Position numbers and translations under genes: made by a program. Below are positions 4,865 through 19,627 of a stretch of DNA of 64,000 nucleotides, piece by piece. Location: NCBI GenBank assembly GCA_025463215.1, contig JAOBWF010000296.1:14098-78097 (forward strand), written 5' to 3'. Every line of letters begins with the position of its first letter. The first letter of the stretch is position 1. The notes beneath the pieces are model-generated. The model saw nothing but the letters and a program-made list of their open reading frames with translations, was not told where the DNA came from and ran no database searches. This DNA is from Acidobacteriota bacterium. Lineage in GTDB: Bacteria > Acidobacteriota > Vicinamibacteria > Vicinamibacterales > CAVVIG01.

Positions 4865-5373
4865 TTCAGCGCCACCACACGAGCCGGATCGATCCGGACG
4901 ACCAGAATCGTCAGCGTCTCTTCGACGTCGGAAAACCCGTGGGGCGTGCCAGCGGGGATGATCACTAGATCGCCCTTGGTCAGCCGTCGCCGTAGACCAC
5001 CGTCGATCCCATTTCCGGCGACGCCGGGCCCGTTCATCTGCGCCACCACTTCGGTGACGTTCCGGCGGCGCTGTGGGTTCACGATCGCACCGCCGGTCAC
5101 GATCGTCCCGACCCCCTCGAGAATTTCGTAGACTTCGGTGACCTGATCGTGGGACGAGGCGGCGGACAACCGCTCGCCCTTCTCGCGGTAGACGATGCCG
5201 ATGCCGACGTGGTGTCCGCCCGCATCGACGGTACGGATTTCTGTGTCGCTGATCTTGTTGGCGATCGAACGGGCTGCGGTCGCCTCAATTTCTGCGGCGG
5301 TGATCGCCGTCGCCGGGAGCGGTGCCGCGGCGATCACCTGGGCGAACGCGAGCCACGCAAGCACGGTCACCAC
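4861..5373 (-). CDS. secreted cupin-domain protein
   Basis: Cupin motifs H-DQVTEVYEILEG and GDLVIIPAGTPHGF; overlaps both neighbours (translational coupling). Confidence 0.85.
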   Translation of the reverse strand: MVTVLAWLAFAQVIAAAPLPATAITAAEIEATAARSIANKISDTEIRTVDAGGHHVGIGIVYREKGERLSAASSHDQVTEVYEILEGVGTIVTGGAIVNPQRRRNVTEVVAQMNGPGVAGNGIDGGLRRRLTKGDLVIIPAGTPHGFSDVEETLTILVVRIDPARVVALK

Positions 5374-8303
5374 TTCACTTGCATCTCCAGCCTAAGCAGG
5401 CGCGGCTGCAGCACGGTCGACGGCTGCAGATACGACGAGGTCAAGTAGTTCATCGACCGCACAGCGTACGCCGCGTGGTTATTGAACGCGTTGAACAGCG
5501 AAATGCCCGGCTCCAGGCGCAGTTTGCCGATCGCCACGTTCTTGCGCAGCGTCACGTCCATCTGCTTCACGCGATCGGAGAACTCCGTTCCCGGCGGAAT
5601 CAGCGGCACCGACAATGACGCAACGGTCATCCCCGGATCGACGAGCGCTCCAGGCGTGCACGCGCCCAGACAATTCGCCGGGTACCGCGTCGTCGGCGTA
5701 ATCAACCAGGCCGAGCCGGCGGTTGCCGTCCCATAGGTGTACTTGTACGTGGTGTACGAGGCGCCGAGCTGCAGCCCATACCTCAGCGGCATCGATCCCG
5801 CCAGCTTGAACTGCGGGTTCCAAGGAATGCCGTTTTGCGTCTGATCGCAATACAGCAGCATGTTCGGGTTGGTGAATCCATCGCACTGCACGACGGTGGT
5901 ACGATCGGTCGCCGTGCCGCCGAAAAGGGTCGCGCCGCCTGGGAACCGCGCATTGAACGCGATCTCGATCGCGTTGTTCCAGCGCCTCCCTTGCGGATCG
6001 GTGGTGTTGAGATTCAGCACGGCGCTCTGTTTGGCCGCGCTGACGTTGTAGACCGCGATCGGGCTCCCGGTAATCGGGTTGGCGATCGTCGTCAACGTGT
6101 AGTCGCTGAAACTCTGCAGCGTGTTTTGCGTGAGCGCCAGAGCATAGAAATTCGTTCGTACCCAGTTGGCGGTCACCGACACACGCGGCAGCAGTTCGTG
6201 CTGGATTCCGATGTTGTACATCACTTCGTAGGGGCGCTGCACGTTCGGATCGACCTGCGCCGTGCCGCACGGGGTCACGCCTGGCGTCGCAATTGTCGAG
6301 CAGCCAGGCGTAATCAGACCGAAGTTCTTCGGCAGCTGCGCGTAGTTGATCTCGCAGCCGGCGGTGTTGAACGTGCAGCCCGGCGACTGCTGAATGACGT
6401 CGTCGCCGTTCAGATCGCGCCACGTGACAGTGGCCGATTGCAGGCGCATCGGGTTCAGTGCCGCCGCGACACCGTTGGTCGCGGACAGCTCGTACTTGTT
6501 GACGCTGAACTTCACCGCCGTCTTCGCATTGCCGCGCAGATCGTAGACGATGCCGAGACGGGGAGCCCAGGTCTTCCAGATCGGCATGTCCTGAGGACCG
6601 AACGAACGATCCGGGACGTAGACTCCGGCCGTCGAGCTTTCGGCCGCGATCGACGAGTGGAAGTATTCCCACCGCATCCCATAGTTGATGGTCAGGCGGC
6701 GTACCGTCCAGGTGTCCTGTGCGTAGAGGCCCCATTGTGCGTTCATCGTGAAGCGATCCCGCTCGGGCGTGTTGTAGATCGCGGCCGATGTCGGCACACC
6801 GTTCTGATAGATCTGGCCGACCGCGCCGTTCAACGTCGTGCCCTGTTCGAGGAATCCCCACGTGTCCTGCGCCCCGAACTTCATCGTATGGGAACCGCTC
6901 ACGTAAGACGCCGACGACGAGAAGAAGCGGCGCACCGGAATCAAATAGTAGTTGCCGCCCGGGGCGGCATTGGTGACGGTGCCGAGTGACGTGTCCATGT
7001 GGTACGCAGCCGCGAACCATGGCAGCGTGCCGTACGGAGGCTCGACGCCCGGTTGATACGTCGTGTGCCGCTGCGCGCGGTACTCACCGTATCCCGCTTC
7101 GAACAGGAGCCGGTTCGACACGGTGGACGTCCATTTGCCCTGCAGCTGCTGATACAGCTTCGATGGCTCCCACACGCGCGAGGCCTTGACCGGGTCGTAG
7201 CCCGCCAGCATGTCGTGCCCTTCGTACTTGTTCACCCGATCGATATAGGCGGTGAACTTATTGCGTGGCGACAGTTGCGTCGTCAAACGGATCGACGCAT
7301 TCTCCACGTACTGATCGAGGACACCCTGGGTGCCGTCGGGATAGAACGTGTCGGCGACGGCGGTGTTCGCGCTGATCTTACGCGCCGCGGCGAACCACCA
7401 CACGCGATCCTTCACGATCTTTCCGCCCAGGCCGCCTTCGAGGTCGTAGAGCCCATCGAGCGAATCGCCCTTGGTCAACCCGCGCGCGATCAAATCCGGC
7501 GAAATGCTCGCCGCCTGCCACGTGTGCCGGCTGCCGTAAGCGTTCATCGAGCCGTGCAGATCGTTGCCGCCCTGACGAGGCACCATGTTCTGGCGGACGC
7601 CGCCAGTCGAGACGTCGGCGCCAGAGGTGGTGGTTTGGAAGACCATCTCCTCGTAGGACTGCGTGTTGGTGTACGCCTGGGTCGAGCCGTTCCCGCACAT
7701 GCCGTTCAGCTGAATGCCGTCGAGCGTCACCGTGGTCTCCTGTCCGGCGTTGCCGTGGAGCAGCATCCCGACCTGGTTCATCGCGTGCGCGCCACCGACG
7801 TCCGGCTGCGCATTCGTCACACCGGTGACCAGCTGTCCGTACGACTGCGCGGTCCGGCCGGTCGGAATTGCGTCAAGGATCTCGCGACTCATCACCTGCC
7901 CCTTCGCTGCGCTCTGCACGTCAACGACGGGCGACGCGCCGGAGACGGTGACCGTCTCCTCGAGCTCGCCGACCCGCAAATCGGCATTCACCGTCGCCGT
8001 GAAGTCGGTCGGCAGCTCGATCGCATTGCGCCGCACCGTCGAGAAGCCCTGGAGCGAAACCGTGATGCTATACACGCCGGGTCTCAGGTCCCGGATCTGA
8101 TACGCGCCGCGATCGTCGGTGGTGACCGACCGGATTTTCTCGATCAGCTGCGGGCTGGCGACTTCCACCGTGGCGCCGGGAATCACCGCGCCGGTCGTAT
8201 CTTTCACCACTCCGACAATGGCGCTCTGCGCACGGGCAATGCTCGGACAGAACGCGAGGCACATCAGCGCGACGACGAACGACTTTCCTATCAGTCTGCG
8301 CAT
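5367..8303 (-). CDS. Oar-like TonB-dependent receptor with N-terminal carboxypeptidase regulatory-like domain (paralog 1)
   Basis: GVVKDTTGAVIPGATVEV..LRPGVYSIT, ETVTVSG, C-terminal beta strand ..MQVKW; ATG 8303 preceded by GGAGGAG. Confidence 0.9.
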   Translation of the reverse strand: MRRLIGKSFVVALMCLAFCPSIARAQSAIVGVVKDTTGAVIPGATVEVASPQLIEKIRSVTTDDRGAYQIRDLRPGVYSITVSLQGFSTVRRNAIELPTDFTATVNADLRVGELEETVTVSGASPVVDVQSAAKGQVMSREILDAIPTGRTAQSYGQLVTGVTNAQPDVGGAHAMNQVGMLLHGNAGQETTVTLDGIQLNGMCGNGSTQAYTNTQSYEEMVFQTTTSGADVSTGGVRQNMVPRQGGNDLHGSMNAYGSRHTWQAASISPDLIARGLTKGDSLDGLYDLEGGLGGKIVKDRVWWFAAARKISANTAVADTFYPDGTQGVLDQYVENASIRLTTQLSPRNKFTAYIDRVNKYEGHDMLAGYDPVKASRVWEPSKLYQQLQGKWTSTVSNRLLFEAGYGEYRAQRHTTYQPGVEPPYGTLPWFAAAYHMDTSLGTVTNAAPGGNYYLIPVRRFFSSSASYVSGSHTMKFGAQDTWGFLEQGTTLNGAVGQIYQNGVPTSAAIYNTPERDRFTMNAQWGLYAQDTWTVRRLTINYGMRWEYFHSSIAAESSTAGVYVPDRSFGPQDMPIWKTWAPRLGIVYDLRGNAKTAVKFSVNKYELSATNGVAAALNPMRLQSATVTWRDLNGDDVIQQSPGCTFNTAGCEINYAQLPKNFGLITPGCSTIATPGVTPCGTAQVDPNVQRPYEVMYNIGIQHELLPRVSVTANWVRTNFYALALTQNTLQSFSDYTLTTIANPITGSPIAVYNVSAAKQSAVLNLNTTDPQGRRWNNAIEIAFNARFPGGATLFGGTATDRTTVVQCDGFTNPNMLLYCDQTQNGIPWNPQFKLAGSMPLRYGLQLGASYTTYKYTYGTATAGSAWLITPTTRYPANCLGACTPGALVDPGMTVASLSVPLIPPGTEFSDRVKQMDVTLRKNVAIGKLRLEPGISLFNAFNNHAAYAVRSMNYLTSSYLQPSTVLQPRLLRLEMQVKW

Positions 8304-8372
8304 ACAGCTCCTCCTCCGGAGCAACCGCGATCGGTCGCTTGCTGCACGATCCTGGACAGGTCTCATAGAGCG

Positions 8373-10310
8373 TTACGGCGTGCCGCCGCGGCCGCCGCCG
8401 AGCGCGAAAGCGACCAGCGCGTTGTCCGCGCCGGTGCCGGTCGCCATGACAATGAATTGCTTGCCCGACGCGGTGCGGTAAGTCATCGGGTTGGCGTTGT
8501 TGGTGTACGGCACGTTGCCGCGCCAGACTTCGCTGCCGGTCAGCGTGTCGAAAGCGTAGAGGTAGCCGTCACCGCCGCCGATGAACACTAGGCCGCTCTT
8601 GGTCACCATCGCCCCGCCGCGGCTGTTGGGGGATCCGAGACGATCGGGCAGGACGACCCCTTTCAGCAGCGGGTTGTTACGCAGCGACGGGCTGCCCTCG
8701 CCGAGTGGCACCTTCCACGCGATCGTCCCCTTGCTCAGATCGAGCGCCGTCAATACCGCGTACGGCGGCGAATTGAGCGGAAGCCCGCGAAGGGTCATCT
8801 CTTCGGCGCCACGCGCGAACATGTTGGAGTACTCGGGATCGACCAGCGCGTCGGTGCCATCGTTCTTCGCGACGCGATTGCGGCCGATCGAGTGCGCCGC
8901 GCGCACGAAGAGGTAACCGCTCCCCGGATCGAACGCGGCGCCTCCCCAGCTCGCGCCGCCGCCCTGCGACGGGCTTTGCAGCGTGCCTTCAAGCGACGGT
9001 GGCGTGTAGAGCGGGCCAAGGCGGTACTTCTTCATCTCCGCCTGCGCCATCGCCTTGATCTCCGGCGTCAGATTGTTCGCGTCCTCGAGCGTGACGCCCT
9101 GGTCGACAAACGCCGGCGGCTTGCTCGGGATCGGCTGCGTCGCGTACGGCTGCTCGCCGGGCACGTTGCTGTCACTCGGAACCGGCTTCTCGACGATTGG
9201 CCACACCGGTTTGCCGGTCACTCGATCGAACACATACGCGAAGCCCTGCTTGGTAACCTGGGCGATCGCGTCGATCTTCCGGCCGTTCACGGTGATCGTC
9301 GCCAGCACCGGTGGCGCGGGATTGTCATAGTCCCACAGCCCGTGGTGGACTTCCTGGAAGTACCACTTCATCCTCCCGGTCGCGACGTCGAGGCAAACGA
9401 CCGACTCCGCGAATAGGTTGGCGCCTTTGCGATCGCCGCCGTAGTAGTCGCTGCTCGGCGTCGTGGTCGGCAGATAGAGCAGCCCGCGCGCCTCGTCGAG
9501 CGCCATCGGCGCCCACACGTTGCCGTGGCCGTTCTTCTTCCACGACTCGTCGTCCCACGACTTGGCGCCGGCATCGCGCTCCGACATCGGGATCACCGCG
9601 AAGACCCACTCGCGCTTGCCGGTCCGCGCGTTGATGGCCTGGACCTGTCCGACCGGATCGGCGGACTGGACACGATCGGGGACCTGGCTGCCCATGATCA
9701 CGAGGTCTTTGTAGATGATCGGCGGCGAGCTCTGCGTCACATGCGTGAAGTCCGAGACGCGCTGGAGACCGTCGGTGAGCGAGACCGCGCCGTTGTTGCC
9801 GAACGAGGCGACCGGCCTGCCGGTCTTGGCGTCGAGCGAGAACAGCCGGTGCCGGCTGTTCAGGAATATGCGCAGCTTGTCGCCGTCGCGCCAGAACGCC
9901 GTTCCGCGCAGCTTCCAGCCGCTGCCGGAGAGCACCTGTCCGAGCTTGTAGGCCTCTCCATCAAAGCGCCATAGCTCTTTGCCCGTTTCGGCGTCGAGCG
10001 CGGCGATGCTGTTGTACGGTGTCGTCACGTAGAGGACACCGTCGATCATCAACGGCGTGCTCTCGAAGAAGCCCGGGACCGTGCCGTAATCCGGCAGCGG
10101 CGTTTCCCAGTGCTTCCACTGCCATGCGACGTGCAGCTGCGACAGGTTGTCCTTATTGATGTCGGTGAGCGCCGAGTACTTCATTCCGCCCTGATCGCCA
10201 CCGTAATAGGGCCACTCGACCTGCTTGGGCGGTTCGGCCACGGCCGCAGCCAGCCACGAGCCGGTGACAACAACTGCCAGAACCGACAACACCTGCTTCA
10301 TCACCGGCAC
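8373..10310 (-). CDS. PQQ-dependent dehydrogenase, quinoprotein glucose dehydrogenase-like (soluble, periplasmic)
   Basis: WPYYGGD..YSALTDIN, FESTPL, HHGLWDYD, Trp-docking repeats; signal peptide, no N-terminal TM anchor. Confidence 0.9.
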   Translation of the reverse strand: MPVMKQVLSVLAVVVTGSWLAAAVAEPPKQVEWPYYGGDQGGMKYSALTDINKDNLSQLHVAWQWKHWETPLPDYGTVPGFFESTPLMIDGVLYVTTPYNSIAALDAETGKELWRFDGEAYKLGQVLSGSGWKLRGTAFWRDGDKLRIFLNSRHRLFSLDAKTGRPVASFGNNGAVSLTDGLQRVSDFTHVTQSSPPIIYKDLVIMGSQVPDRVQSADPVGQVQAINARTGKREWVFAVIPMSERDAGAKSWDDESWKKNGHGNVWAPMALDEARGLLYLPTTTPSSDYYGGDRKGANLFAESVVCLDVATGRMKWYFQEVHHGLWDYDNPAPPVLATITVNGRKIDAIAQVTKQGFAYVFDRVTGKPVWPIVEKPVPSDSNVPGEQPYATQPIPSKPPAFVDQGVTLEDANNLTPEIKAMAQAEMKKYRLGPLYTPPSLEGTLQSPSQGGGASWGGAAFDPGSGYLFVRAAHSIGRNRVAKNDGTDALVDPEYSNMFARGAEEMTLRGLPLNSPPYAVLTALDLSKGTIAWKVPLGEGSPSLRNNPLLKGVVLPDRLGSPNSRGGAMVTKSGLVFIGGGDGYLYAFDTLTGSEVWRGNVPYTNNANPMTYRTASGKQFIVMATGTGADNALVAFALGGGRGGTP

Positions 10311-10401
10311 CTCTCGCTCGTTAACTGAACTGCGGTCGAGAGCGTCTTCATTGGGACAAATAAGTCGGTGTCAAGAAACAAATTCGTCGGCATCCGCGTG
10401 A

Positions 10402-10484
10402 TGTATAGAGGACCCACCCGCAGACTGCAACCGTTGTGGGACGAATGGCAGTCGGCAGGGGCCAACGGCAATTGCCGGGTACAC
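10402..10484 (-). promoter_or_regulatory. putative sigma70 promoter (TTGCAG-N17-TATACA) with upstream 20-bp-period repeats (candidate LytTR sites)
   Basis: On + strand: TATA 10404-10407, CTGCAA 10425-10430, GGGACGA 10438, GGGGCCA 10458; same architecture at 17979-18060. Confidence 0.6.
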
Positions 10485-10628
10485 GTGCTCGTGGATGGTG
10501 ACGCTGTCGTCTCGACATAGTCACCGTCGTGTCACGTCACGCGCGTGCAGTGACGTCCGATTACCCAGGAGGAGGACGAAAACCAGAGTTGTCAGCGACC
10601 AGGGTGATCGGTAGAATGCCGCCTACCC

Positions 10629-11822
10629 GTGTCTAGGGTTACGGCTTTTCCAGCCGAGCACCTCCACGTACCGGCCGCTCGCGACACCTCAGTCGCGCTC
10701 AAGGTGCGCCCGGTCGATTCGACGGCATCGCCGCGGAGCGCCGTCGAGCGGCTCGCGCTGTGGGCGGTGGCGGTCCCGTTGGGACTGCTCGACGGGCTGC
10801 ATTGGTATCTGCAGACGCCGCCGGTCAATCCCGCGGTCGTCGTGCTCCATGTCCTCGTCGCGTGGACGCTGTATCCCGCGCTGGTGCCGTTCGCGCAATC
10901 GGTCACCCGCCGCTTCCCGCTGGACACGGCCGCGTGGCCGCGCGCTGTTCCAGTGCACCTGCTGGCAGCGGTGGCGTTTCAGTACGTCCACCTGCAAATC
11001 ACGCACTTTCTGCTGGTGATGGTGGTGCGGCCCATCTTTTTCCCTGGCGCGACGACTGCGCGCTACTACTTTCCCGGTCTGCCACCGCAGCACCTGCGCG
11101 AATACCCGATCGATCTGCTCGCCTACTGGATCATCGTCGGTTTCTTTTACGCGGCGCACTATCGCTCCGAGCTGCACCAACGGGAAGTCGGTGCGGCACG
11201 GCTCGAAACCAGCCTGGCTGAGGCGCGTCTCGAGCTGCTGCGGCGCCAGCTCAGCCCGCACTTCCTCTTCAACACGCTGAACACCATCTCGGTGCTGGCA
11301 CAAAACGGCAATCAGACCGCCTTTCTTGAAACCCTGTCCCGGTTGAGTAACCTGCTCCGCGTCGCGCTAGACGAGACGCAGCCGCAAATCGTCCTGCTCT
11401 CGGACGAGCTGAAATTTCTCGAGGGCTATATCGCTATCCAGCAGATCCGCTTCGCCGATCGCCTGCACGTGCAGCTCAATGTCGAGAAGGTCTCGCGGCG
11501 CGGCCTGGTACCGTTCATGATCCTGCAGCCCTTGGTCGAGAACTCGATCGAGCACGGGTTCTCGGCGCTGACCTCCAGCACGGTGGTGATTATCGAAACG
11601 ACCGTGAAACGCTCGACGCTCATTCTGCGCGTCAACGACAGCGGACCGGGATTCACCAACGCGCCGGGGCCGCGCCACGACCGCATCGGCCTCGCCAACA
11701 CCGCGTCGCGCCTGCACCAGCTGTACGGCGACCGCCAGACGATCGAGTACGGACATTCTCCTGACGGCGGCGCATCGGTCACGATCTCCATTCCATTTGA
11801 GCAGGCGAGCGACCGCGACTGA
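10629..11822 (+). CDS. LytS/YehU-family sensor histidine kinase
   Basis: QLSPHFLFNTLNTI H-box, ILQPLVENSIEHG, IGLANT; N-terminal TM helices. Confidence 0.93.
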   Translation: MSRVTAFPAEHLHVPAARDTSVALKVRPVDSTASPRSAVERLALWAVAVPLGLLDGLHWYLQTPPVNPAVVVLHVLVAWTLYPALVPFAQSVTRRFPLDTAAWPRAVPVHLLAAVAFQYVHLQITHFLLVMVVRPIFFPGATTARYYFPGLPPQHLREYPIDLLAYWIIVGFFYAAHYRSELHQREVGAARLETSLAEARLELLRRQLSPHFLFNTLNTISVLAQNGNQTAFLETLSRLSNLLRVALDETQPQIVLLSDELKFLEGYIAIQQIRFADRLHVQLNVEKVSRRGLVPFMILQPLVENSIEHGFSALTSSTVVIIETTVKRSTLILRVNDSGPGFTNAPGPRHDRIGLANTASRLHQLYGDRQTIEYGHSPDGGASVTISIPFEQASDRD

Positions 11823-11836
11823 ATCCGGGAGGAACA

Positions 11837-12628
11837 GTGATTAACACTCTCATCGTTGATGACGAGCCGTTGGCCCGCGAAGGGATCCGGCTGGCCTTGA
11901 AAGGCGAGGCCGACGTGCGCATCGTGGGAGAGGCCGCCGACGGCGAGGCCGCTTTGAACGCGATGGAGAAACTGGCGCCCGATCTTATGTTCCTCGATAT
12001 CCGGATGCCAGGGTTGAACGGCTTCGACGTGCTGGCACGCGCCAGCCACAGCCACACCCGTATGCCGGTGATCGTGTTCGTGACCGCGTTCGATCGTTAT
12101 GCGGTCAAGGCGTTCGAAGCGAACGCGCTCGACTACCTGCTGAAACCGGTCGAGCCACAGCGGCTCAGGGCGGCGGTCGAGCGGACGCGGGCCGAGCTGG
12201 CGAAACAGGAAATCATCAAGGACGCGAAGCGGCGCGCCATGGATCTGCAGAGTGTCGAAGAGCGGCCTGTGGCGCCGCGATCCAGCGAGCCGCTCGCGCG
12301 AGCCGAGTATCTCGACCGCGTCGCTGTCCGCGTCCGCGATCGGTTCCTGCTGATCAAGATGAACGACGTTGACTGGATCGAGTCGGCCGCCAACTACGTG
12401 CAGCTGCACTCGCGGTCCCGATCGTTCCTGCTGAGAATGACGATGGGCGAGCTCGAAGCAAAGTTGGACCCGCACCGTTTCTCGCGCATCCATCGATCGA
12501 CGATCGTGAATATCGATCGGCTCGTGGAGGTCAAGCCGTCGCTGCACGGCGATTTCGACGTCGTGCTGCAGGACGGCACGACGCTGCGCATGAGCCGCGG
12601 TTACCGCGAGGCGCTGCTGCCGCGATAA
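11837..12628 (+). CDS. LytTR-family response regulator
   Basis: Receiver LIVDDEPLAR/FLDIRMP/DYLLKP; LytTR FSRIHRSTIVN..SRGY. Confidence 0.95.
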   Translation: MINTLIVDDEPLAREGIRLALKGEADVRIVGEAADGEAALNAMEKLAPDLMFLDIRMPGLNGFDVLARASHSHTRMPVIVFVTAFDRYAVKAFEANALDYLLKPVEPQRLRAAVERTRAELAKQEIIKDAKRRAMDLQSVEERPVAPRSSEPLARAEYLDRVAVRVRDRFLLIKMNDVDWIESAANYVQLHSRSRSFLLRMTMGELEAKLDPHRFSRIHRSTIVNIDRLVEVKPSLHGDFDVVLQDGTTLRMSRGYREALLPR

Positions 12629-12649
12629 TCTAGACTACTGAGCCGGCTT

Positions 12650-12952
12650 CTATTTCGCGGCGCTCAGCGCCTTCAGGTACGCGAACACCTGCTTGACTTC
12701 GTCGTCGCCCATCGACGCCTTGGATACCGGCGGCATCTCGCCGCCGCCTTCGCGGACGCGCGCGACGAACTCATCGACCTCCATGTCGATCGGCACGAGG
12801 CGCGGAGCCGCATCGCCCCGCCCCTCGTCGCCGTGACAGGTTGCGCAGACGCGATCGAACGGCGCTTTTCCGGCCGGCGGCTGGGCCTGGCCGGACATCA
12901 TCACCGCGGAGGTTAGCAGCGTCGCAGCAATACCGAGCGTGAAGGCGCGCAT
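12650..12952 (-). CDS. monoheme class I cytochrome c
   Basis: Signal peptide MRAFTLG.., CATCH, distal Met in GEMPP. Confidence 0.88.
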   Translation of the reverse strand: MRAFTLGIAATLLTSAVMMSGQAQPPAGKAPFDRVCATCHGDEGRGDAAPRLVPIDMEVDEFVARVREGGGEMPPVSKASMGDDEVKQVFAYLKALSAAK

Positions 12953-13043
12953 AGGGATCACCTGATTAAATGACGGGACAGACGAAGAGGCGGTACGGCT
13001 GGCGACTCTTCGAGCGTGTACAACCGACCGGCCGAACCTTCTT

Positions 13044-14882
13044 CTATTGCGGTAGCGCAAACACCCACACGCCAAACCCTGCCTGCGGCCAGTGGACTTC
13101 GGGGTTCAGTTCCCTCGCGACCGTCGTGATCCAATTGTGCGACATCGACGCGCCGGTGATGAAGGCAAAATATTGCCGCCCCTTGACCCTGAAAGTGATC
13201 GGACTCCCTTCCATCTTCGTCGCCATCCGCGGCGACTTCCACAGGATATTGCCGGTGCTGAGATCCAGCGCGTACATGTAACGATCCGTGTCGCCCACAA
13301 ACACCAGACCGCCGGCTGTCGTCATAACCGGTGTGGAGAACTGCGTCGCCTGCCGGTGCGTCCAAAGCGTCTTGCCGAACACGTCCATCGCCAACACCTG
13401 TGCCGCCAGACCCTTGAAGTCGGGATGGAACAGGTTGACCCGGCAGCATTCCCCTCCGTACTCGTCAGCACCCGACCCGGGGGTGTAGACCCGAGTGCTG
13501 CAGTTGAGCGACATTGGAATGTAGAACGCCTGGGTGGCGGGGTTGTAGGACATCTGCCGTGAATTCTTGAAGCCGGACGTGCTCGGGCACGTGTAGACCG
13601 GCTGCCCCATCGGAGCGTCGATCACTTCCGGGCGGTAGCGCACGAACCCTCGCTCGGGATCGATCTCCATCATGTTCTGCAGGCCGGTGTCCGTCGCTCG
13701 GATCAGGCGACCGGTCTGCCGATCGAGGTGCCACAACACGCCGGACTTCCCCATCTCGAAACCGGACTTGCGCGCGTATCCGGGAATGTCGACGTTGATG
13801 AATTCGTAAATCTCGTCGAGGTCGAAACTCTCGCCAGGAACGTACTGATGGTACCAGGCCATCTTGCCGGTGGCGGTGTCGAGCGCCAGCGTCGAATCGG
13901 TGTAGAGGAGCGACATGCCGTCCTTCTCACCGCGGCTCTTCCGATGCCACGGCTTCGCCTGCGTCGCGCCCCAGTAGGTCAGATGCAGGATCGGATCAAA
14001 GCTGCCGGTAATCCACGGATTGCCGCTGGTGGCGCCGCGTTTCTCGAGCGGGATCCCTTCCCACGTGTCGCCGCCGGGCTCACCGGGCGCCGCCGTCGTG
14101 TAGGTCCGCCACGCGCGCGCGCCGGTCTTGGCGTCGATCGCTCCGATGAAGCAGCGGACCCCCTGCGCACAGTCAACGCCGGAGATGATCTTTCCATCGG
14201 CGGCGAGCCCAGTACCCGACGAAGGGGTGTGACCATCGCCCGCATCGTACAGCGAGCCCTCGAACGCCTTGGTGCCATCGCGAACGTTGATCGCGTCGAT
14301 CTTGCCGTCGGCCGGATGAATGAAAGCCTTGTCCTCGTAGAGGACGATCCCGCCGCGGATGCCGCCGGTCGCCCCGGCCGACGTGCCTTTCGCCATCTGG
14401 TGGCGGTACTGCCACAGAAAATCGCCGGTCGCGGCGTCGAGTGCATGCACCACGCCACCCGGCATGCTGAGATACATGACCCCGTCGTGGACGATGGGGC
14501 CGACCCAATCATCCACGTTCGGTGAGGCGCCCTTCTCGATCCCCCACGACCACACCAGTTGCAGGCCGCGGACGTTGCTCTTGTTGACTTGATCCAGCGG
14601 GCTGAAACTCTGAGCGTCGTAGGTGCGCCGGTACATCAGCCAGTCGCCGGGATCCGGATTGCGCAACATCGCATCGGTGACCGGCCGGGTGGTGGTCACC
14701 GTGCGGTTGATCGGCGACCGAACCGGCGGCTTGTAATTCCGTTGCGCTTCCGACTGCTCCGCGCTGCGGCCGCGTCCCGCCGGGGCCTGACCGGCTTGCT
14801 CCTGCTGTGCCACCGGCGCATCCTGGCTCGTAGCCAGGACCAGCGCGAGCAGCGACAACACCCACGTGACTCGAGTTCGCAT
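13044..14882 (-). CDS. PQQ-binding beta-propeller, alcohol-dehydrogenase-like
   Basis: DWLMYRRTY..FSPLDQVN, GPIVHDGVMY, TAGGLVFVG, SPITF..GRQY; signal peptide. Confidence 0.88.
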   Translation of the reverse strand: MRTRVTWVLSLLALVLATSQDAPVAQQEQAGQAPAGRGRSAEQSEAQRNYKPPVRSPINRTVTTTRPVTDAMLRNPDPGDWLMYRRTYDAQSFSPLDQVNKSNVRGLQLVWSWGIEKGASPNVDDWVGPIVHDGVMYLSMPGGVVHALDAATGDFLWQYRHQMAKGTSAGATGGIRGGIVLYEDKAFIHPADGKIDAINVRDGTKAFEGSLYDAGDGHTPSSGTGLAADGKIISGVDCAQGVRCFIGAIDAKTGARAWRTYTTAAPGEPGGDTWEGIPLEKRGATSGNPWITGSFDPILHLTYWGATQAKPWHRKSRGEKDGMSLLYTDSTLALDTATGKMAWYHQYVPGESFDLDEIYEFINVDIPGYARKSGFEMGKSGVLWHLDRQTGRLIRATDTGLQNMMEIDPERGFVRYRPEVIDAPMGQPVYTCPSTSGFKNSRQMSYNPATQAFYIPMSLNCSTRVYTPGSGADEYGGECCRVNLFHPDFKGLAAQVLAMDVFGKTLWTHRQATQFSTPVMTTAGGLVFVGDTDRYMYALDLSTGNILWKSPRMATKMEGSPITFRVKGRQYFAFITGASMSHNWITTVARELNPEVHWPQAGFGVWVFALPQ

Positions 14883-14962
14883 GACCAACCCTCCCCAACG
14901 ATCATTCCGGAGCGGCCACCGTAGCCTTCCGGCAGTGTCTGCTCACTTGTCCGAAGCGACCC

Positions 14963-17896
14963 TCACCACTTCACCTGCATGCCGAGCCGGACAATCCGCG
15001 GCGGAAGAATCGTCGACGGCTGAAAATAGGATGTTGTCGCGTAGTTGAAGGAGCGGAAGCCGTACGCCGCCAGGCTGTTGAGCGCGTTGAACAGGCTCAA
15101 CTCGGGCTCGACCTTGATTCTGCCGACCGTGATCCACCGGCCGACGTTAATATCGAGCTGGTTGATGCGATCGCTCGATTCGGTGCCCGGTGCGATCAAC
15201 GGCACCGACAGCGACGCGACAGTCATGCCGGGATCGACCAGCGCTCCCGGTGTGCACGGTCCGGTGCAATTCGCCGCGTAGCGCGTGGTCGGCGTGATCA
15301 GCCACTGCGTGCCGTAGTTGGCGGTGACGTTACCGACGGCGGCGCCGCCAATCATGTACTTGTAGCTTTGAAATGACGCTCCCAGCGTGATGCTGTAGGG
15401 CAGCTGCATCGATCCGGACAGCTTCATGTTGATGAGCAACGGAATGTGGCTGGCGCTCTGGTCACAGTACAGCAGGTTGTTCGGATTGGTGGGATCGTCG
15501 CAGGCGATCTGAATCGTCCGATCCATCGACAGGCCGCCGAACAGCACTGCGCCCCGGCTCAGGCGCGCCGAGAAGCCGAATTCGGCGGCGTTGGTCCACT
15601 TCTTCGCGTTGGGATCGTTGGTCAACAGATTGAGCACTTTGGAGCGCGCGGCGGCACTGACGTTGTAAATGGTGATCGCGCTGCCGTCCAGCGGACTCGC
15701 GATCTGCACCGGAGTGTAGTCGGACGACTGCTGTGCCGCGTTGTAGGTCATCCCCAGATCGTAGAACTCGGTGTGGAAGTAGTTGGCGTTGACCGACACT
15801 CGCGGGAGCAGCTCACGCTGAATCCCCAGGCTGTACTGCAGATTCGCGCCGCGCTTGCGGTTCGGATCGAGTTGGCTCGTGGCGCAGGCCGGTACGCCGG
15901 GGGTGGCAATCACCGAACAACCCGGCGTCACGGTGCCGAAACCGGCCGGGAGCTGCGCCAGATTGAGCTCGTTGGTCTGCGCGATGTTGTCCTTGTTCAG
16001 GTCGTTCCACGTCACGGTCGCCGACTGACTGCGGATTGGATTGTAGGCGTTGGTCAGTCCGTCGGTGAGCTGGGTCTGATACTTGTTGACGCTGAACTTG
16101 ACCGCGGTCTTGCCGTTGCCGGAGACATCGTAGACAACGCCAAACCGAGGATTGAGGCTCTTCCACGTCGGAAACGTATCGCCGCCGTAATTTCGGTCGC
16201 CGACGAACCGCCCCGGTCCCACGACTTCGGCAGGGATCGACGCCCCGAAATCTTCCCAGCGCAATCCGGCGTTGACCGTGAACCGTTTCGCGGTCCATGT
16301 GTCCTGACCGTAGAGGCCCCAGAACGCATCCATCGAATTCGAATACCGCACCGGCGTGTTGAAGATGGCGGCGGATGTCGGCACGCCGTTCTGGTAGTTC
16401 AGCTCGAGGTCGCCGTTCTTGTCGTAGGCGAACGTTTCGAACCCCTTCTGATCCTGAACACCGACTTTGATGTTGTGCGACCCGGTGACGTAGGTCACGG
16501 ATCCGTCGAAGAAACGGCGCGTCGGATCCTGCGTCGTCGGTCCGATCGGCGCGGCGCCGGTCAGCGTTCCGAGCGACAGATCCCGGTGCGTCACATTGGC
16601 GAGCCACGCCGCCGATCCGTACGCCAGGCCGTAGCAGCTGCAATTGGGCTCGTACGAGTTGGTGCGGTACGCCTGGTAGTGGTTCGACCCGGCTTCAATC
16701 AGCAGCCGGTTCGACGCCGCGAACGTCCACTTGACCTGCGCCTGATCGTAGAGCGGCGACGGAGAGGTGAGGATGGCCGCGCTCGGCGCCTGTCCGCCGC
16801 TCATCGCCGCGCCGATGAACTTCCAGACGCGATCGTAGTAGCCGTTGAGCTGCATGCGCGAATTGAGCTGGCCACTCAGCCGGAGCGAGCTGTTCTTCAC
16901 ATACTGCGGGTTCACACCCTGAGTGCCATCTGGATTGAACGTGTCGGCGACGAGCGTGTCGACCTCGTTCTTGCGCGCCGCGGCAAACCACCACAGCCTG
17001 TCCTTGATGATTTTGCCGCCGAGACCGGCTTCGTAGTCGTAGATCTTGTCGAAGCTGTCGCCCTTCGTCAGGCCCCGAGCGACGAGATCGGGCGACAACG
17101 CATTGGCCTGCCACTTGCCGCTCGCGAACGCGAGGGCGCCGGATCCGTGAAATTCGTTTCCGCCTCGCCGTGTGATGAGGTTCTGACGCACGCCACCTGC
17201 GGACACGTCGGCGCCCGCGCCGCTGTTCTGGACGACGATCTCCTGGTAGTTCTGAGTGTTCGAATACGACTGTGTCGCGCCGTTACCGCACATGCCGTTG
17301 AGCTGAATGCCGTCAAGCAGCACGGTCGCCTGTTCGCCGGCCATTCCGTGCGCCTGTGACGCGTTCTGGTTCATGCCGTTCGAGCCGGCGACATCCGGCG
17401 TCCCCATGACGACGCCCGGCACGAGTGCCGCGGCGGTCTGAGCGCTGCGTCCGGTGGGAATCGCGTCGAGCACTTCGCGGTTGAGCGTCTGCGACTTCGC
17501 CGTGCTCTGAACATCGACCACCGGCGACGCGCCCGATACCGTCACCGTCTCTTCAAGCGCGCCGACGCGTAGCTCCGCATTGACGGTCGCGGTGAAGTTA
17601 CTCGGCAGCTCCAGAGCTTCGCGTTTGACGACGCTGAAACCGCCAAGCGTGAAGGTCACGGTGTACGTGCCAGCCACCAAGCCGACGACCTGATACACGC
17701 CGCGATCGTCCGAGGTGACCGCGCGCACTTTCTCGATGAGCGCCGGGCTCGCCGCTTCCACCGTGACGCCAGGCAGCACCGCGCCCGACGTGTCTCTAAC
17801 TACCCCAGCGATCGCACTTTGTGCGAACGCCGCTGACGGCGCCAACCAGGAGCCGACCATCGCGAGCATCAACCAGAGTCCGCCCTTCAATCGCAT
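14963..17896 (-). CDS. Oar-like TonB-dependent receptor with carboxypeptidase regulatory-like domain (paralog 2)
   Basis: GVVRDTSGAVLPGVTVEA, GIQLNGMCGNG shared with paralog 1, ends MQVKW; ATG 17896 after GAGAGG. Confidence 0.9.
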   Translation of the reverse strand: MRLKGGLWLMLAMVGSWLAPSAAFAQSAIAGVVRDTSGAVLPGVTVEAASPALIEKVRAVTSDDRGVYQVVGLVAGTYTVTFTLGGFSVVKREALELPSNFTATVNAELRVGALEETVTVSGASPVVDVQSTAKSQTLNREVLDAIPTGRSAQTAAALVPGVVMGTPDVAGSNGMNQNASQAHGMAGEQATVLLDGIQLNGMCGNGATQSYSNTQNYQEIVVQNSGAGADVSAGGVRQNLITRRGGNEFHGSGALAFASGKWQANALSPDLVARGLTKGDSFDKIYDYEAGLGGKIIKDRLWWFAAARKNEVDTLVADTFNPDGTQGVNPQYVKNSSLRLSGQLNSRMQLNGYYDRVWKFIGAAMSGGQAPSAAILTSPSPLYDQAQVKWTFAASNRLLIEAGSNHYQAYRTNSYEPNCSCYGLAYGSAAWLANVTHRDLSLGTLTGAAPIGPTTQDPTRRFFDGSVTYVTGSHNIKVGVQDQKGFETFAYDKNGDLELNYQNGVPTSAAIFNTPVRYSNSMDAFWGLYGQDTWTAKRFTVNAGLRWEDFGASIPAEVVGPGRFVGDRNYGGDTFPTWKSLNPRFGVVYDVSGNGKTAVKFSVNKYQTQLTDGLTNAYNPIRSQSATVTWNDLNKDNIAQTNELNLAQLPAGFGTVTPGCSVIATPGVPACATSQLDPNRKRGANLQYSLGIQRELLPRVSVNANYFHTEFYDLGMTYNAAQQSSDYTPVQIASPLDGSAITIYNVSAAARSKVLNLLTNDPNAKKWTNAAEFGFSARLSRGAVLFGGLSMDRTIQIACDDPTNPNNLLYCDQSASHIPLLINMKLSGSMQLPYSITLGASFQSYKYMIGGAAVGNVTANYGTQWLITPTTRYAANCTGPCTPGALVDPGMTVASLSVPLIAPGTESSDRINQLDINVGRWITVGRIKVEPELSLFNALNSLAAYGFRSFNYATTSYFQPSTILPPRIVRLGMQVKW

Positions 17897-17978
17897 ATAT
17901 CCTCTCCCTCTTGTGAGCTGGTGTCCGCGCCGACGAAGCGGACGCTCAGAGATCGAACGGCCAAACCGTGAGACGGGG

Positions 17979-18060
17979 GATATACCACGCGGCGCGGTGC
18001 TCGCAACGTCATTGGGACGAGACGCAAACGGCGAGGACAACCGGCGGCCGGCCGGGACCA
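17979..18060 (-). promoter_or_regulatory. putative promoter (TTGCGA-N16-TATATC) with three 20-bp-period repeats (candidate LytTR sites)
   Basis: On + strand: GGGACGA 18014, AGGACAA 18034, GGGACCA 18054; same 7-bp gap from the -35 element as at 10438. Confidence 0.6.
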
Positions 18061-18450
18061 ACGATGGGCGCCCCGACGCCGATGAGACCGGCGCGGGACC
18101 CGCGCGAGCACGGTTTACATGCATCCTGCATTGTCGCGAATGTGACGGTGACACCTCGATATGGCATCGCGCTGAACAGAGCGACAGCGCCTCGGCACAC
18201 GCGGGGCGCACGCGGACGCGGCGCGCGGGTTGGGACGGACCGCAATGGAGGCGGATGAACAGCAATAGGAAGGTACACAGGCTGATGGATCACGCGGCTC
18301 GCCTCATTTATAGTTGCAGCGCTGAAGCGGCGCGTTGTGAGCGCCGTTCTTCTCACATCGGCGTGATCGCTTTATGTTTTCGCCGAGTCGGTCTTGGCGA
18401 CTGGGGCGCGAGGCACCGCCGCGCGGGCTCGCCATACTTGGAGGGGTCGA

Positions 18451-19587
18451 ATGCTCGCGAAATCGTCACGTCATGTGGTTCGGGTCCTCGCGTGTCTCGT
18501 GCTGAGCGATGCGGCGTTCCTCGCCGCGCAGGTCGCAACTTCACGGCAGAAGCTCGACGCGCAGCTGGCATCGTCGACGAAGGAAGTCCGCACCGGCGAG
18601 AACCTCACACTGCCTCCGAGCGGGGATTGGCGCGCCCGATACAAGGAGACCGACTTCCCGGTCGTCAAGAAGGTCGCCGACAACGTCTATCTCTTCCAGA
18701 TGCCACACCCCGGCATCAAGGGTTGGCTGGTCAACAGCTTGATCGTGATCACCACGGACGGCGTCGTCGTGATCGAGGGTCAGATGAACGGCGCCAAGCT
18801 GGTCGACGAAGTCAAGAAGCTGACGGCCCAGCCGATCAAGTACCTCATCGTCGGCAGCACGCATGGCGATCACGGCGAAACGCAGATGGCCTCTATGCCA
18901 GGTGCGGACAAGATCACGTTTATCGGTCATGCAATCACTAAATGGTGGTTCGAGAACGATTCGAAGATCCCGAACCGGTCCGGCGAACTGCCAAACATTG
19001 TCAAGATCAACGACGTGGTGGGGACCCTGCCGGAAGACCCGAAGAGCGCACCGCCGCATGTGACGAAGATCCTCAAGGTGGGCAACGAAGAGTTCGACAT
19101 CATGTTCATGGGCCGCGGCCACGCCGGACCGGATCTCGAAACCTATCTGCCGAAGCACAAGATTCTGTGGTTAAGCGAATCTTTCGAATCGCGGCAACTT
19201 CCTTCGATGGGCGACAGTTCGTACCCCTCGGAATGGATTGCGATGCTGAAAGAGGCGGCGCTCATGAAGAATGTCGATAACTACCTCGGCGCACACGGAT
19301 TCATGGACACTCCGGCGATCAACAAGGAAGAACTCATCAACGATATCCGCGTGCTCGAACAGACCTACGCCGAAGCCAAGCGTCTGCACGATGCGGGCAT
19401 TCCGATCGACGAAGTCCCGAAGCATTGGCACTTCGGGGAGAATGCGGCGCTCTTTTTTGCAGATGCCGCATTGCCCGACATCACGGCGATTTATTGGGAA
19501 CTGGACAATAAGCTCCCCGCCTGTCCGCCGTGCCGCCCAAGACGATGGCAAGGAGGGGGCGACACGGCTGTCCTCCCCGTGAAGTAG
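18451..19587 (+). CDS. secreted MBL-fold metallo-hydrolase (degenerate metal motif)
   Basis: NSLIVITTDGVVVIE, PIKYLIVGSTHGDH, GRGHAGPD, GAHG; RBS GGAGGG. Confidence 0.8.
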   Translation: MLAKSSRHVVRVLACLVLSDAAFLAAQVATSRQKLDAQLASSTKEVRTGENLTLPPSGDWRARYKETDFPVVKKVADNVYLFQMPHPGIKGWLVNSLIVITTDGVVVIEGQMNGAKLVDEVKKLTAQPIKYLIVGSTHGDHGETQMASMPGADKITFIGHAITKWWFENDSKIPNRSGELPNIVKINDVVGTLPEDPKSAPPHVTKILKVGNEEFDIMFMGRGHAGPDLETYLPKHKILWLSESFESRQLPSMGDSSYPSEWIAMLKEAALMKNVDNYLGAHGFMDTPAINKEELINDIRVLEQTYAEAKRLHDAGIPIDEVPKHWHFGENAALFFADAALPDITAIYWELDNKLPACPPCRPRRWQGGGDTAVLPVK

Positions 19588-19627
19588 TTCGTCACATCCG
19601 ATGAGTCGCCTAGTGCGTGAGAACACC

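Follow-up and report, generated by a model that had tools for sequence, protein, structure and literature searches.

Predicted operator repeats with a 20-bp period beside a LytS/LytTR gene pair in an Acidobacteriota genome

Most of what is known about LytTR regulators comes from Firmicutes, where they act in virulence, competence and bacteriocin circuits, and from a small number of nutrient sensors in enterobacteria. To our knowledge, their operators share no common consensus, and each must therefore be found separately. In the 64,000-nucleotide stretch of Acidobacteriota DNA analyzed here (hereafter the window), a LytS-type kinase gene and a LytTR regulator gene are flanked by two paralogous operons, and short GGGAC repeats lie upstream of both. 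This raises the question of which protein binds the repeats and which genes it controls through them. As detailed below, comparison with related loci indicates that the repeats are probably an operator of the adjacent kinase/regulator pair.

Repeats and genes in the window

A first-pass annotation had described three-unit repeats at two sites in the window, and we found all their elements where they had been placed, letter for letter. The sites and the genes around them are as follows.

5367..8366, minus strand: TBDR1, TonB-dependent-receptor-like outer membrane protein (CarboxypepD_reg domain and beta-barrel)
8373..10301, minus strand: PQQ1, PQQ-dependent dehydrogenase, first gene of operon 1 (PF01011, 1.2e-191)
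10438..10484, plus strand: site 1, read from sequence, with the PQQ1 operon (minus strand) on one side and the kinase gene (plus strand) on the other; GGGACGA 10438-10444, GGGGCCA 10458-10464, GGTACAC 10478-10484
10629..11822, plus strand: histidine kinase, LytS-type (His_kinase PF06580, 1e-23; HATPase_c PF02518, 5e-07)
11837..12628, plus strand: response regulator, receiver (PF00072, 4.1e-27) and LytTR (PF04397, 2.7e-23, residues 169-260)
12650..12955, minus strand: c-type cytochrome, last gene of operon 2 (profile matches)
13044..14888, minus strand: PQQ2, PQQ-propeller protein (profile matches)
14963..17896, minus strand: TBDR2, TonB-dependent receptor, first gene of operon 2 (CarboxypepD_reg and Plug)
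18014..18060, plus strand: site 2, read from sequence, upstream of the TBDR2-PQQ2-cytochrome c operon; GGGACGA 18014-18020, AGGACAA 18034-18040, GGGACCA 18054-18060
18232..18278, plus strand: site 3 (weak), found by MAFFT, upstream of the metallo-beta-lactamase-fold gene; GGGACGG-N13-CGGATGA-N13-GGTACAC
18451..19587, plus strand: metallo-beta-lactamase-fold protein with signal peptide (quinoprotein relay system zinc metallohydrolase 2 model, weak at 6.6e-10 and below cut-off)

The repeat period is exactly 20 bp at sites 1 and 2, and units 2 and 3 of site 1 have one mismatch each. The two sites are not the complete set for the window, since the weaker site at 18232 had been missed. Site 3 matches site 1 at 33/57 positions beyond the anchor, the top value among 4265 GGGACG-anchored segments (mean 15.9, sd 3.4), and scores 2.6 bits with a weight matrix built solely from 18 foreign sites in other genera. 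An extra GGGACAA, previously listed with the repeats, is indeed present at 10353-10359, but a role as a repeat is unsupported: it has no partner 20 bp off, scores -7.5 bits and lies downstream of the proposed -10 box.

The kinase shows a PHFLFN histidine motif. Its first 198 residues are hydrophobic and match no family, and a Pfam search at E <= 0.001 found no 5TMR-LYT membrane sensor domain in the protein. The regulator shows the DDE...FLDIRMP receiver motifs, including the phospho-acceptor aspartate, and its nearest NCBIfam models are BtsR (186.6 bits, cut-off 246) and LytR (134.3 bits, cut-off 375), both under cut-off. PQQ1 has WDYD at 323-326; DYD is described, in the available part of PMC11845868, as a signature of rare-earth-dependent alcohol dehydrogenases. 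We set a lanthanide reading of PQQ1 aside, its best NCBIfam model being the glucose/quinate/shikimate family, where the motif may have another meaning.

Several searches of the locus itself were negative. No Rfam family reached its gathering score between 10200 and 18500, a blastn-short search of the genome with the three sites gave nothing beyond chance words of 12-16 nt, and the 20-bp repeats are too short and degenerate for a repeat search, which missed them. Contig X2 spans 8500-10927 with eight differences; among the five listed, the sole intergenic one (10563) lies outside site 1, and the comparison is uninformative because the sequence is too near the window's own. The short contigs X4 and X5 span site 2, with four and five differences respectively.

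Within the window, self-similarity is greatest at lag 20 in both intergenic regions (21/40 and 24/40 matches). This is not above background: across 300 random genome segments, the mean is 22.5 and the 95th percentile 25. Genome-wide, exact GGGAC-N15-GGGAC pairs do not peak, with 6 at spacing 20 vs 2-20 at spacings 10-31. The degenerate three-unit pattern of the first-pass annotation has two matches in the genome, namely the two sites to which it had been fitted. The claim that the 20-bp periodicity exceeds chance thus fails for the window alone but, as shown in the next section, holds for the loci of relatives.

The repeats follow one clade of the regulator

We collected 22 loci (403 kb) around orthologues of the regulator (41-60% identity). 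There, same-strand GGGAC pairs occur 18 times at spacing 20 and 0-3 times at every other spacing from 6 to 65. An unbiased scan that paired 5-mers with spacings (about 29,000 combinations) recovered GGGAC at 20 as the strongest signal (p 8e-19; next 3e-8); TTCAT at 21 and AACCT at 14/21/28, from the same scan, could be traced to coding sequence or to tandem repeats of heptamers. The motif is present in 11/22 loci, from nine genomes in seven other genera, counts that overstate the independent events because related genomes are not independent. In the foreign sites, unit 1 has the conserved core tGGGACrrrnCGAGC and unit 2 has GGGACsr. It is the pair that is well conserved from the originally proposed three-unit repeat: most relatives of the regulator keep only two units, and apart from site 2 a single relative has an exact third unit. 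The orthologous operon 2 in locus L126 carries CCGCAA-N7-GGGACGA-N13-GGGATGC-N13-GGGACGC, the same three-unit layout as site 2.

The other 11 loci have no site above 9 bits, except for one 13.5-bit match in L131. They include L121, which has the closest orthologue of the regulator (57-60% identity), divergent from a PQQ1 gene of 73% identity, on a contig of only 8.3 kb; aligning its intergenic region with site 1 revealed no convincing conserved block. One foreign pair, inside the Asp/Glu racemase gene of L124, is probably there by chance. In five relatives' genomes, 12/79 exact pairs fall in the regulator loci, which make up about 0.43% of the DNA, and a control pattern read backwards gives 46.

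The foreign-site matrix was run over the 5.79-Mb genome of the window (11.6 million positions), where 11 matches exceed 12 bits. Site 2 ranks first (17.9 bits) and site 1 eleventh (12.0 bits), so the window sites are degenerate beside the foreign ones, which score 15-47 bits. In the 64-kb window only four positions exceed 5 bits, sites 1 and 2 and two others at 5.6 and 5.1. We discarded the remaining nine matches above 12 bits as members of a regulon: seven lie within ORFs, and the two intergenic ones (C133 and C111) have no good unit 1. No wider regulon is therefore supported, and the genome-wide LytTR regulon suggested earlier gives way to a set of local sites.

Three sets of control loci show no comparable signal. 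Distant LytTR regulators, used as controls only and drawn from genome and metagenome contig scans with the regulator protein at 47% identity or less, gave 0 pairs at spacing 20 in 80 loci (1.24 Mb) and 2 in 80 metagenome loci (0.55 Mb). Twelve loci with PQQ1 orthologues but no regulator (0.22 Mb) have 0 pairs. Among PQQ1/TBDR1 orthologue loci, the closest (L133; 86% and 82% amino-acid identity) has neither kinase nor regulator and scores no higher than 0.3 with the matrix. In a tree of the regulators, 12/12 motif-bearing proteins fall on one side of 15 rows (support 92/87), and on the other side 0/8 proteins carry the motif; the motif requires 3 changes, against a mean of 7.9 in shuffles, of which 0/500 were as low. 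The kinase and the regulator are the sole genes common to all mapped motif-bearing loci. Because the same repeats accompany its relatives in other soil bacteria, they are very likely the docking sites of the regulator. The original proposal that the adjacent LytTR protein binds them is thus supported by co-occurrence with its orthologues, position on one side of the tree, absence in controls, agreement with published geometry and the recurrence in relatives of a 7-bp gap to TTG.

Candidate promoters and the direction of control

Promoter-like elements accompany the window sites and are listed here by position.

10402..10430, minus strand: candidate promoter reading left into the PQQ1-TBDR1 operon; -35 TTGCAG (10430-10425), 17-nt spacer, -10 TATACA (10407-10402)
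10492..10521, plus strand: promoter-like element right of site 1, TGGATG-N18-CATAGT, 7 bp past unit 3, which would read to the kinase gene
10589..10617, plus strand: consensus-like promoter just before the kinase gene, TTGTCA-N17-TAGAAT (10/12 matches; 0.0 expected in shuffles)
17979..18006, minus strand: candidate promoter reading left into the TBDR2 operon; -35 TTGCGA (18006-18001), 16-nt spacer, TGG and -10 TATATC (17984-17979)
18286..18314, plus strand: promoter-like element right of site 3, TGGATC-N17-TATAGT, read from sequence

On the plus strand, the two leftward -35 elements read CTGCAA (10425-10430, site 1) and TCGCAA (18001-18006, site 2), and the gap between unit 1 and the predicted -35 is 7 bp at both sites. 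The TTGC and TATA hexamers proposed earlier are thus present, and their 7-bp gap recurs in relatives: at 7/20 foreign sites the opposite strand has TTG at exactly this distance from unit 1, and six of the seven face a TonB-receptor gene. A consensus promoter scan, however, calls neither minus-strand promoter; the hexamers match at 3/6 and 4/6 positions, and neither -10 box has the T expected as its sixth base. The scan did not call the 18286..18314 element either. As for the 10492..10521 element, which overlaps an inverted repeat (10494-10528), a promoter towards the kinase gene is conceivable from its hexamers.

From these data, we infer the following mechanism. The membrane kinase would sense a signal, probably nutrient-related, and phosphorylate the regulator, molecules of which would sit side by side on successive GGGAC units, one per two helical turns. 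The promoter-proximal unit would lie 7 bp upstream of a weak TTG-type -35, at about -49 to -43 relative to the start of transcription, and the regulator bound there would recruit RNA polymerase to both minus-strand operons, PQQ1-TBDR1 and TBDR2-PQQ2-cytochrome c. On its other side, site 1 probably also exerts feedback on the kinase/regulator operon, and the weaker site 3 may drive the metallo-beta-lactamase-fold and FMN-dehydrogenase genes.

In the relatives, the repeats face either way with respect to the nearest gene, which is unusual for direct repeats and makes the target strand of site 1 ambiguous. One tentative and rather unlikely extension is that site 1 serves two divergent promoters symmetrically, bound by an orientation-independent LytTR activator of a nutrient-sensing regulon. 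Consistent with this, -35-like hexamers lie exactly 7 bp beyond both outermost units of site 1 (TTGCAG left, TGGATG right), and the GGGAC pairs of relatives, in either orientation, keep a similar distance to a -10 box. If so, one LytTR array would activate both the PQQ1-TonB-receptor operon and the regulator's own kinase/regulator operon, and an undescribed soil-bacterial regulon would couple TonB-dependent uptake with periplasmic quinoprotein oxidation.

The operator could also act mainly or only on plus-strand genes, through autoregulation at site 1 and on the metallo-beta-lactamase/FMN-dehydrogenase genes at site 3, the minus-strand TTGC and TATA boxes being coincidental. About 13/20 foreign sites have no left TTG and their nearest gene lies in the GGGAC direction, an extended -10 (TGnTAAGCT or TGnTTAGAT) is often found 35 or ~52 bp past unit 2, and L126 has two GGGAC pairs upstream of its kinase gene in direct orientation. 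In addition, sites 1 and 3 share TGGAT[GC]-N17/18-[CT]ATAGT 7 bp past unit 3, and GGTACAC-N7-TGGAT occurs twice genome-wide, at these two sites only. We nonetheless consider this reading improbable: site 2, the top-scoring one, has no promoter-like element on its right, its layout is kept before the orthologous TonB-receptor operon of L126, and seven foreign sites, six of them facing TonB-receptor genes, show the exact 7-bp TTG gap.

That the repeats are regulatory DNA of another protein, a transcription factor or alternative sigma factor encoded elsewhere and merely co-occurring, is in our view a remote prospect. The motif is missing from half of the loci with regulator orthologues, and the core GGGAC (with GAGC in unit 1) is shorter than the usual 9-11 nt LytTR half-sites. 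However, the motif follows the regulator clade and not the target genes, PQQ1/TBDR operons without the regulator are without the motif, and no genes other than the kinase and the regulator are common to all mapped motif-bearing loci. A direct-repeat period of 20 bp is, moreover, a LytTR hallmark in the available parts of PMC4847170 and PMC11347149.

It is very improbable that the regulator binds the sites but represses. LytTR repressors with three direct repeats are known, such as CoxC (PMC11347149, available part), but the CoxC operator overlaps the -35, whereas the units here stop 7 bp upstream of it, and weak -35 and -10 boxes are usual for activator-dependent promoters. Chance matches in G+C-rich intergenic DNA, for which the background-level periodicity of the window and the unenriched exact pairs of the genome might speak, can practically be dismissed, since the sites rank 1 and 11 among 11.6 million positions with a matrix from other genera only, and both are intergenic, on the same strand, 7 bp from TTGC and before paralogous operons flanking the regulator.

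Significance and comparison with known LytTR systems

The reading that we favor, repeats bound by the adjacent regulator, credibly adds a new predicted operator to a known regulator class. For an uncultured soil-bacterial LytTR clade, this operator would be tGGGAC-N15-GGGAC, with a 7-bp gap between its proximal unit and the -35. The operator is linked with TonB-dependent receptors and PQQ dehydrogenases, abundant classes whose regulation in these bacteria is poorly understood, and could help to trace the regulon, and in time the signal, in the genomes of relatives. In the portions of the literature available, we found nothing linking LytTR regulators with TonB-dependent receptors and PQQ dehydrogenases, and our search for LytTR two-component systems with TonB-dependent receptors in Acidobacteria also found none.

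The receiver-LytTR architecture of the regulator is shared with AgrA, ComE, AlgR and VirR. These regulators bind paired direct repeats upstream of the -35, activate and frequently autoregulate their own operon, but they differ from the system in the window in controlling virulence, competence or bacteriocin genes and in having an A+T-rich consensus. LytTR sites are described as two direct or inverse repeats of 9-11 nt, 11-13 nt apart (PMC4847170, available part), and the geometry in the window fits the period of about 20-24 bp given in the accessible text of PMC4847170 and PMC11347149. Most LytTR regulators bind upstream of the -35 and activate, and RcoM1 and CoxC have three-repeat operators (PMC11347149, available part). 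With three imperfect direct repeats, 12-13 bp spacers and a place beside the -35, as that text has it, the latter match the three-unit layout of site 2 and of L126. However, RcoM1 and CoxC are one-component sensors (haem/PAS or MHYT) whereas the window protein is a response regulator, their repeats (TTCNNGCA / TTNNNGCN) are unlike GGGAC, their three units compare with only two conserved in most relatives of the window regulator, and the repressing, -35-overlapping operator of CoxC differs from the layout in the window.

The closest parallels are BtsS/BtsR (YehU/YehT) and YpdA/YpdB of Escherichia coli, which likewise combine a PF06580 kinase with a receiver-LytTR regulator and, as predicted for the window, use direct-repeat units spaced by about two helical turns in front of a transporter promoter, in a small and local regulon. 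Both are LytS/LytTR systems that sense pyruvate and turn on the gene of a nutrient transporter. For YpdB, the bound sequence is a direct repeat of GGCATTTCAT (PMC4847170, available part). The window regulator is only distantly related to BtsR and YpdB, BtsR being its best NCBIfam model but below cut-off, and the GGGAC motif is unrelated. In contrast to the inner-membrane carriers controlled by the two E. coli systems, the predicted targets in the window are TonB-dependent outer-membrane receptors and periplasmic PQQ dehydrogenases.

Two TonB-receptor/quinoprotein operons around a two-component system

ORF calls combined with Pfam and NCBIfam searches reveal, in a G+C-rich window (67% for the whole genome), a two-component system flanked by two paralogous operons, each encoding a TonB receptor and a quinoprotein:

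5367-8366, minus: TBDR1, CarboxypepD_reg-type TonB-receptor-like protein
8373-10301, minus: PQQ1, full-length PQQ dehydrogenase
10629-11822, plus: kinase, LytS-type PF06580 domain
11837-12628, plus: receiver-LytTR response regulator
12650-12955, minus: c-type cytochrome
13044-14888, minus: PQQ2, PQQ-propeller protein
14963-17896, minus: TBDR2, TonB-dependent receptor with Plug
18451-19587, plus: secreted metallo-beta-lactamase-fold protein
19601-20851, plus: FMN-dependent dehydrogenase

The upstream regions of the two operons hold site 1 (10438-10484) and site 2 (18014-18060), three-unit GGGAC arrays that the first-pass annotation proposed as LytTR-binding sites. The regulator's closest named relatives are BtsR and LytR, each below the NCBIfam model cut-off, and the sequencing runs containing the stretch are soil metagenomes. 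PQQ1, whose gene adjoins a TonB receptor gene, reads WDYD at the catalytic aspartate (residues 323-326), where an aligned calcium-type quinohaemoprotein alcohol dehydrogenase has WDYTS. Rare-earth-dependent alcohol dehydrogenases have DYD as their signature according to passages of PMC11845868. The meaning of this motif in PQQ1 is uncertain because its best NCBIfam model is of the glucose/quinate/shikimate family; inspection of the PQQ2 sequence revealed no DYD-type motif.

Upon re-reading the window, the letters, coordinates and 7-bp gaps described for both arrays proved correct, and the minus-strand elements TTGCAG-N17-TATACA and TTGCGA-N16-TATATC, as well as a GGGACAA at 10353, are present as claimed. 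On window evidence only, the repeat signal is weak. Exact GGGAC occurs in just three of the six units. Self-similarity is best at lag 20 in both upstream regions, but the scores, 21/40 and 24/40, are no higher than for segments drawn at random from the genome (mean 22.5, 95th percentile 25). A regular expression for all six units matches just these two places in the genome, to which it was fitted. Neither of the minus-strand promoters was picked up in a consensus promoter scan, which did call TTGTCA-N17-TAGAAT (10589-10617), just 5' of the kinase gene. The lone GGGACAA, within the presumed 5' leader of PQQ1, has no partner unit. In this part of the leader (10348-10390), it has the 10-mer TCATTGGGAC in common with unit 1 of site 2 (18009-18018) and overlaps a 13-nt direct repeat, ACAAATAAGTCGG / ACAAATTCGTCGG, at a 22-bp spacing.

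The GGGAC repeat in loci of regulator orthologues

The same genus has no close orthologue of the kinase or regulator (the regulator search matched 0 of 12 genomes at E <= 1e-65), and orthologues with 41-60% identity are found in other genera of the family and order. We sampled 22 loci around these orthologues, each up to 20 kb (403 kb in total); in most, CarboxypepD_reg TonB receptors adjoin the kinase/regulator pair, with PQQ dehydrogenases in several. Same-strand GGGAC pairs number 18 at spacing 20, versus 0-3 at each other spacing from 6 to 65. GGGAC at 20 is also the top signal in an unbiased scan of all 5-mers at spacings 10-40 (p 8e-19 among ~29,000 combinations; second, 3e-8), and the motif therefore emerges without prior assumption. 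These pairs come from 11 loci in nine genomes of seven genera, one of them, inside a racemase gene (L124), probably being a chance match. The consensus of the relatives' sites, tGGGACrrrnCGAGC...GGcaGGGACsr, has GGC just 5' of unit 2, in agreement with the GGC elements previously noticed in the window's spacers.

Counted as exact GGGAC-N15-GGGAC, the repeat is at background in the window's genome (6 pairs versus 2-20 at neighbouring spacings). A weight matrix built solely from the relatives' sites places both arrays among its top hits. Among 11.6 million positions, 11 exceed 12 bits, with site 2 ranking first (17.9 bits) and site 1 eleventh (12.0 bits); of the remaining nine hits, seven are within ORFs. 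In the window, scores above 5 bits are reached by site 1, site 2 and two further positions (5.6 and 5.1). Half of the orthologue loci (11/22) have no site, including that of the window regulator's nearest relative (L121); its contig is only 8.3 kb long, and there the regulator gene is divergent from the gene of a 73%-identical PQQ1. A third unit is the exception among relatives.

Leftward of unit 1, a TTG follows after exactly 7 bp at sites 1 and 2 and at 7 of the 20 foreign sites (those from relatives), with a chance expectation of ~1% per site. Each of these seven has a -10-like hexamer 16-17 bp beyond the TTG, and six of them face a TonB-receptor gene. Upstream of an operon 2 orthologue (L126; TBDR and a 77%-identical PQQ2), CCGCAA-N7-GGGACGA-N13-GGGATGC-N13-GGGACGC reproduces the three-unit layout of site 2. 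The promoter architecture that the first-pass annotation saw as shared by the two operons is therefore conserved. At the other foreign sites, no TTG lies to the left and the genes faced are those in the GGGAC direction; an extended -10 (TGnTAAGCT or TGnTTAGAT) frequently follows 35 or ~52 bp past unit 2. The relatives' repeats thus occur in both orientations, the proximal GGGAC being ~33 bp from the -10 box either way.

The extended -10 box TGnT(T)A..T, seen in L031, L032, L036, L122, L123 and L129 (TGCTTAGAT, TGCTTAAAT, TGCTAAGCT), recurs at fixed distances from GGGAC pairs, and promoters in this family appear to use it. Two relatives from different regulator subclades, L037 (10163-10212) and L032 (~9646), have tandem heptamers AACCTCC/AACCTCG in at least eight copies, either upstream of the kinase gene or next to it.

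MAFFT aligned site 1 with 18232-18295 (site 3), not with site 2. Past the GGGACG anchor, 33 of 57 bases are identical, the best of 4265 such anchors genome-wide (mean 15.9, sd 3.4, next best 29). Both sites run on through GGTACAC, 7 bp, TGGAT[GC], 17-18 bp and [CT]ATAGT; neither the rest of the genome nor any of the relatives' loci contains GGTACAC-N7-TGGAT. The TGGAT[GC]/[CT]ATAGT pair, 7 bp past unit 3, looks like a rightward promoter, directed from site 1 to the kinase gene and from site 3 to that of the metallo-beta-lactamase-fold protein. With the matrix from the relatives' sites, site 3 reaches just 2.6 bits because its unit 2 reads CGGATGA, and it is possibly a weak site. The protein encoded 3' of it weakly matches (6.6e-10, below cut-off) the NCBIfam model "quinoprotein relay system zinc metallohydrolase 2", an identity that would give it a functional connection with the PQQ genes. 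A cluster of GTGAC/GTCAC elements (10494-10556) separates site 1 from the kinase promoter and overlaps the proposed rightward element, with an imperfect inverted repeat (10494-10509 pairing with 10513-10528; 16-nt arms, 81% complementary) and a palindrome (10531-10554), which could be a second regulator's operator.

Association of the repeat with the regulator

In the whole genomes of five relatives, 12 of 79 exact pairs fall in regulator loci, ~0.43% of the DNA, and a control pattern read backwards occurs 46 times. Spacing-20 pairs number none in 80 loci of distant LytTR regulators (1.24 Mb) and two in 80 metagenome loci (0.55 Mb). Twelve loci of 70-88%-identical PQQ1 orthologues contain no such pairs, and none has the kinase/regulator within reach. 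The closest orthologue of the PQQ1-TBDR1 operon (L133; 86% and 82% amino-acid identity), with a TBDR2 orthologue immediately after it, is accompanied by no two-component system, and its locus reaches a maximum matrix score of only 0.3.

L133 (G030:C144, 6393-16902), from another genus of the family, carries the PQQ1 (86%), TBDR1 (82%) and TBDR2 (70%) orthologues in head-to-tail order on a single strand, and neither a kinase nor a regulator lies between them; the window arrangement therefore looks like an inversion plus gain of both the two-component system and its operator sites. Elsewhere, a consensus-like site (GGGACGAGACG...GGGACGGAA) lies beside a 42%-identical LytTR regulator on a metagenome contig (L157, ~1762), and a 16.7-bit site is found at a contig start (L141, position 114; G121:C393), 1.5 kb upstream of a PQQ1 orthologue.

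A maximum-likelihood tree built for 23 regulators places all 12 that bear the motif on one 15-row side (support 92/87); the eight on the other side all lack it. The motif changes three times, versus 7.9 in shuffles (0/500 as low), which shows clustering rather than independent events because related genomes share labels.

A candidate LytTR operator for uptake and oxidation genes

By analogy with LytTR systems described elsewhere, we propose that the phosphorylated regulator would bind GGGAC units side by side and, from ~-45 and ~-65 (~-85 with a third unit), would activate weak promoters. According to passages of PMC4847170, LytTR sites consist of 9-11-nt repeats with 11-13-nt spacers; passages of PMC11347149 describe three-repeat operators for RcoM1 and CoxC, and most LytTR regulators as binding upstream of -35 and activating. 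The regulator would probably act on the two TonB-receptor/quinoprotein operons and on its own operon, perhaps also on the metallo-beta-lactamase-fold/FMN-dehydrogenase genes; the signal, regulator binding, sign of regulation and start sites are what we infer. A literature search returned nothing that connects TonB receptors and PQQ enzymes to LytTR regulators. While the regulator family is already known, the candidate operator sequence and the target class, both from uncultured soil bacteria, are new; the operator is solid as a computational prediction, and the general surprise modest. A nutrient-sensing role for the window regulator would be in line with BtsR and YpdB, both of which switch on transporter genes.
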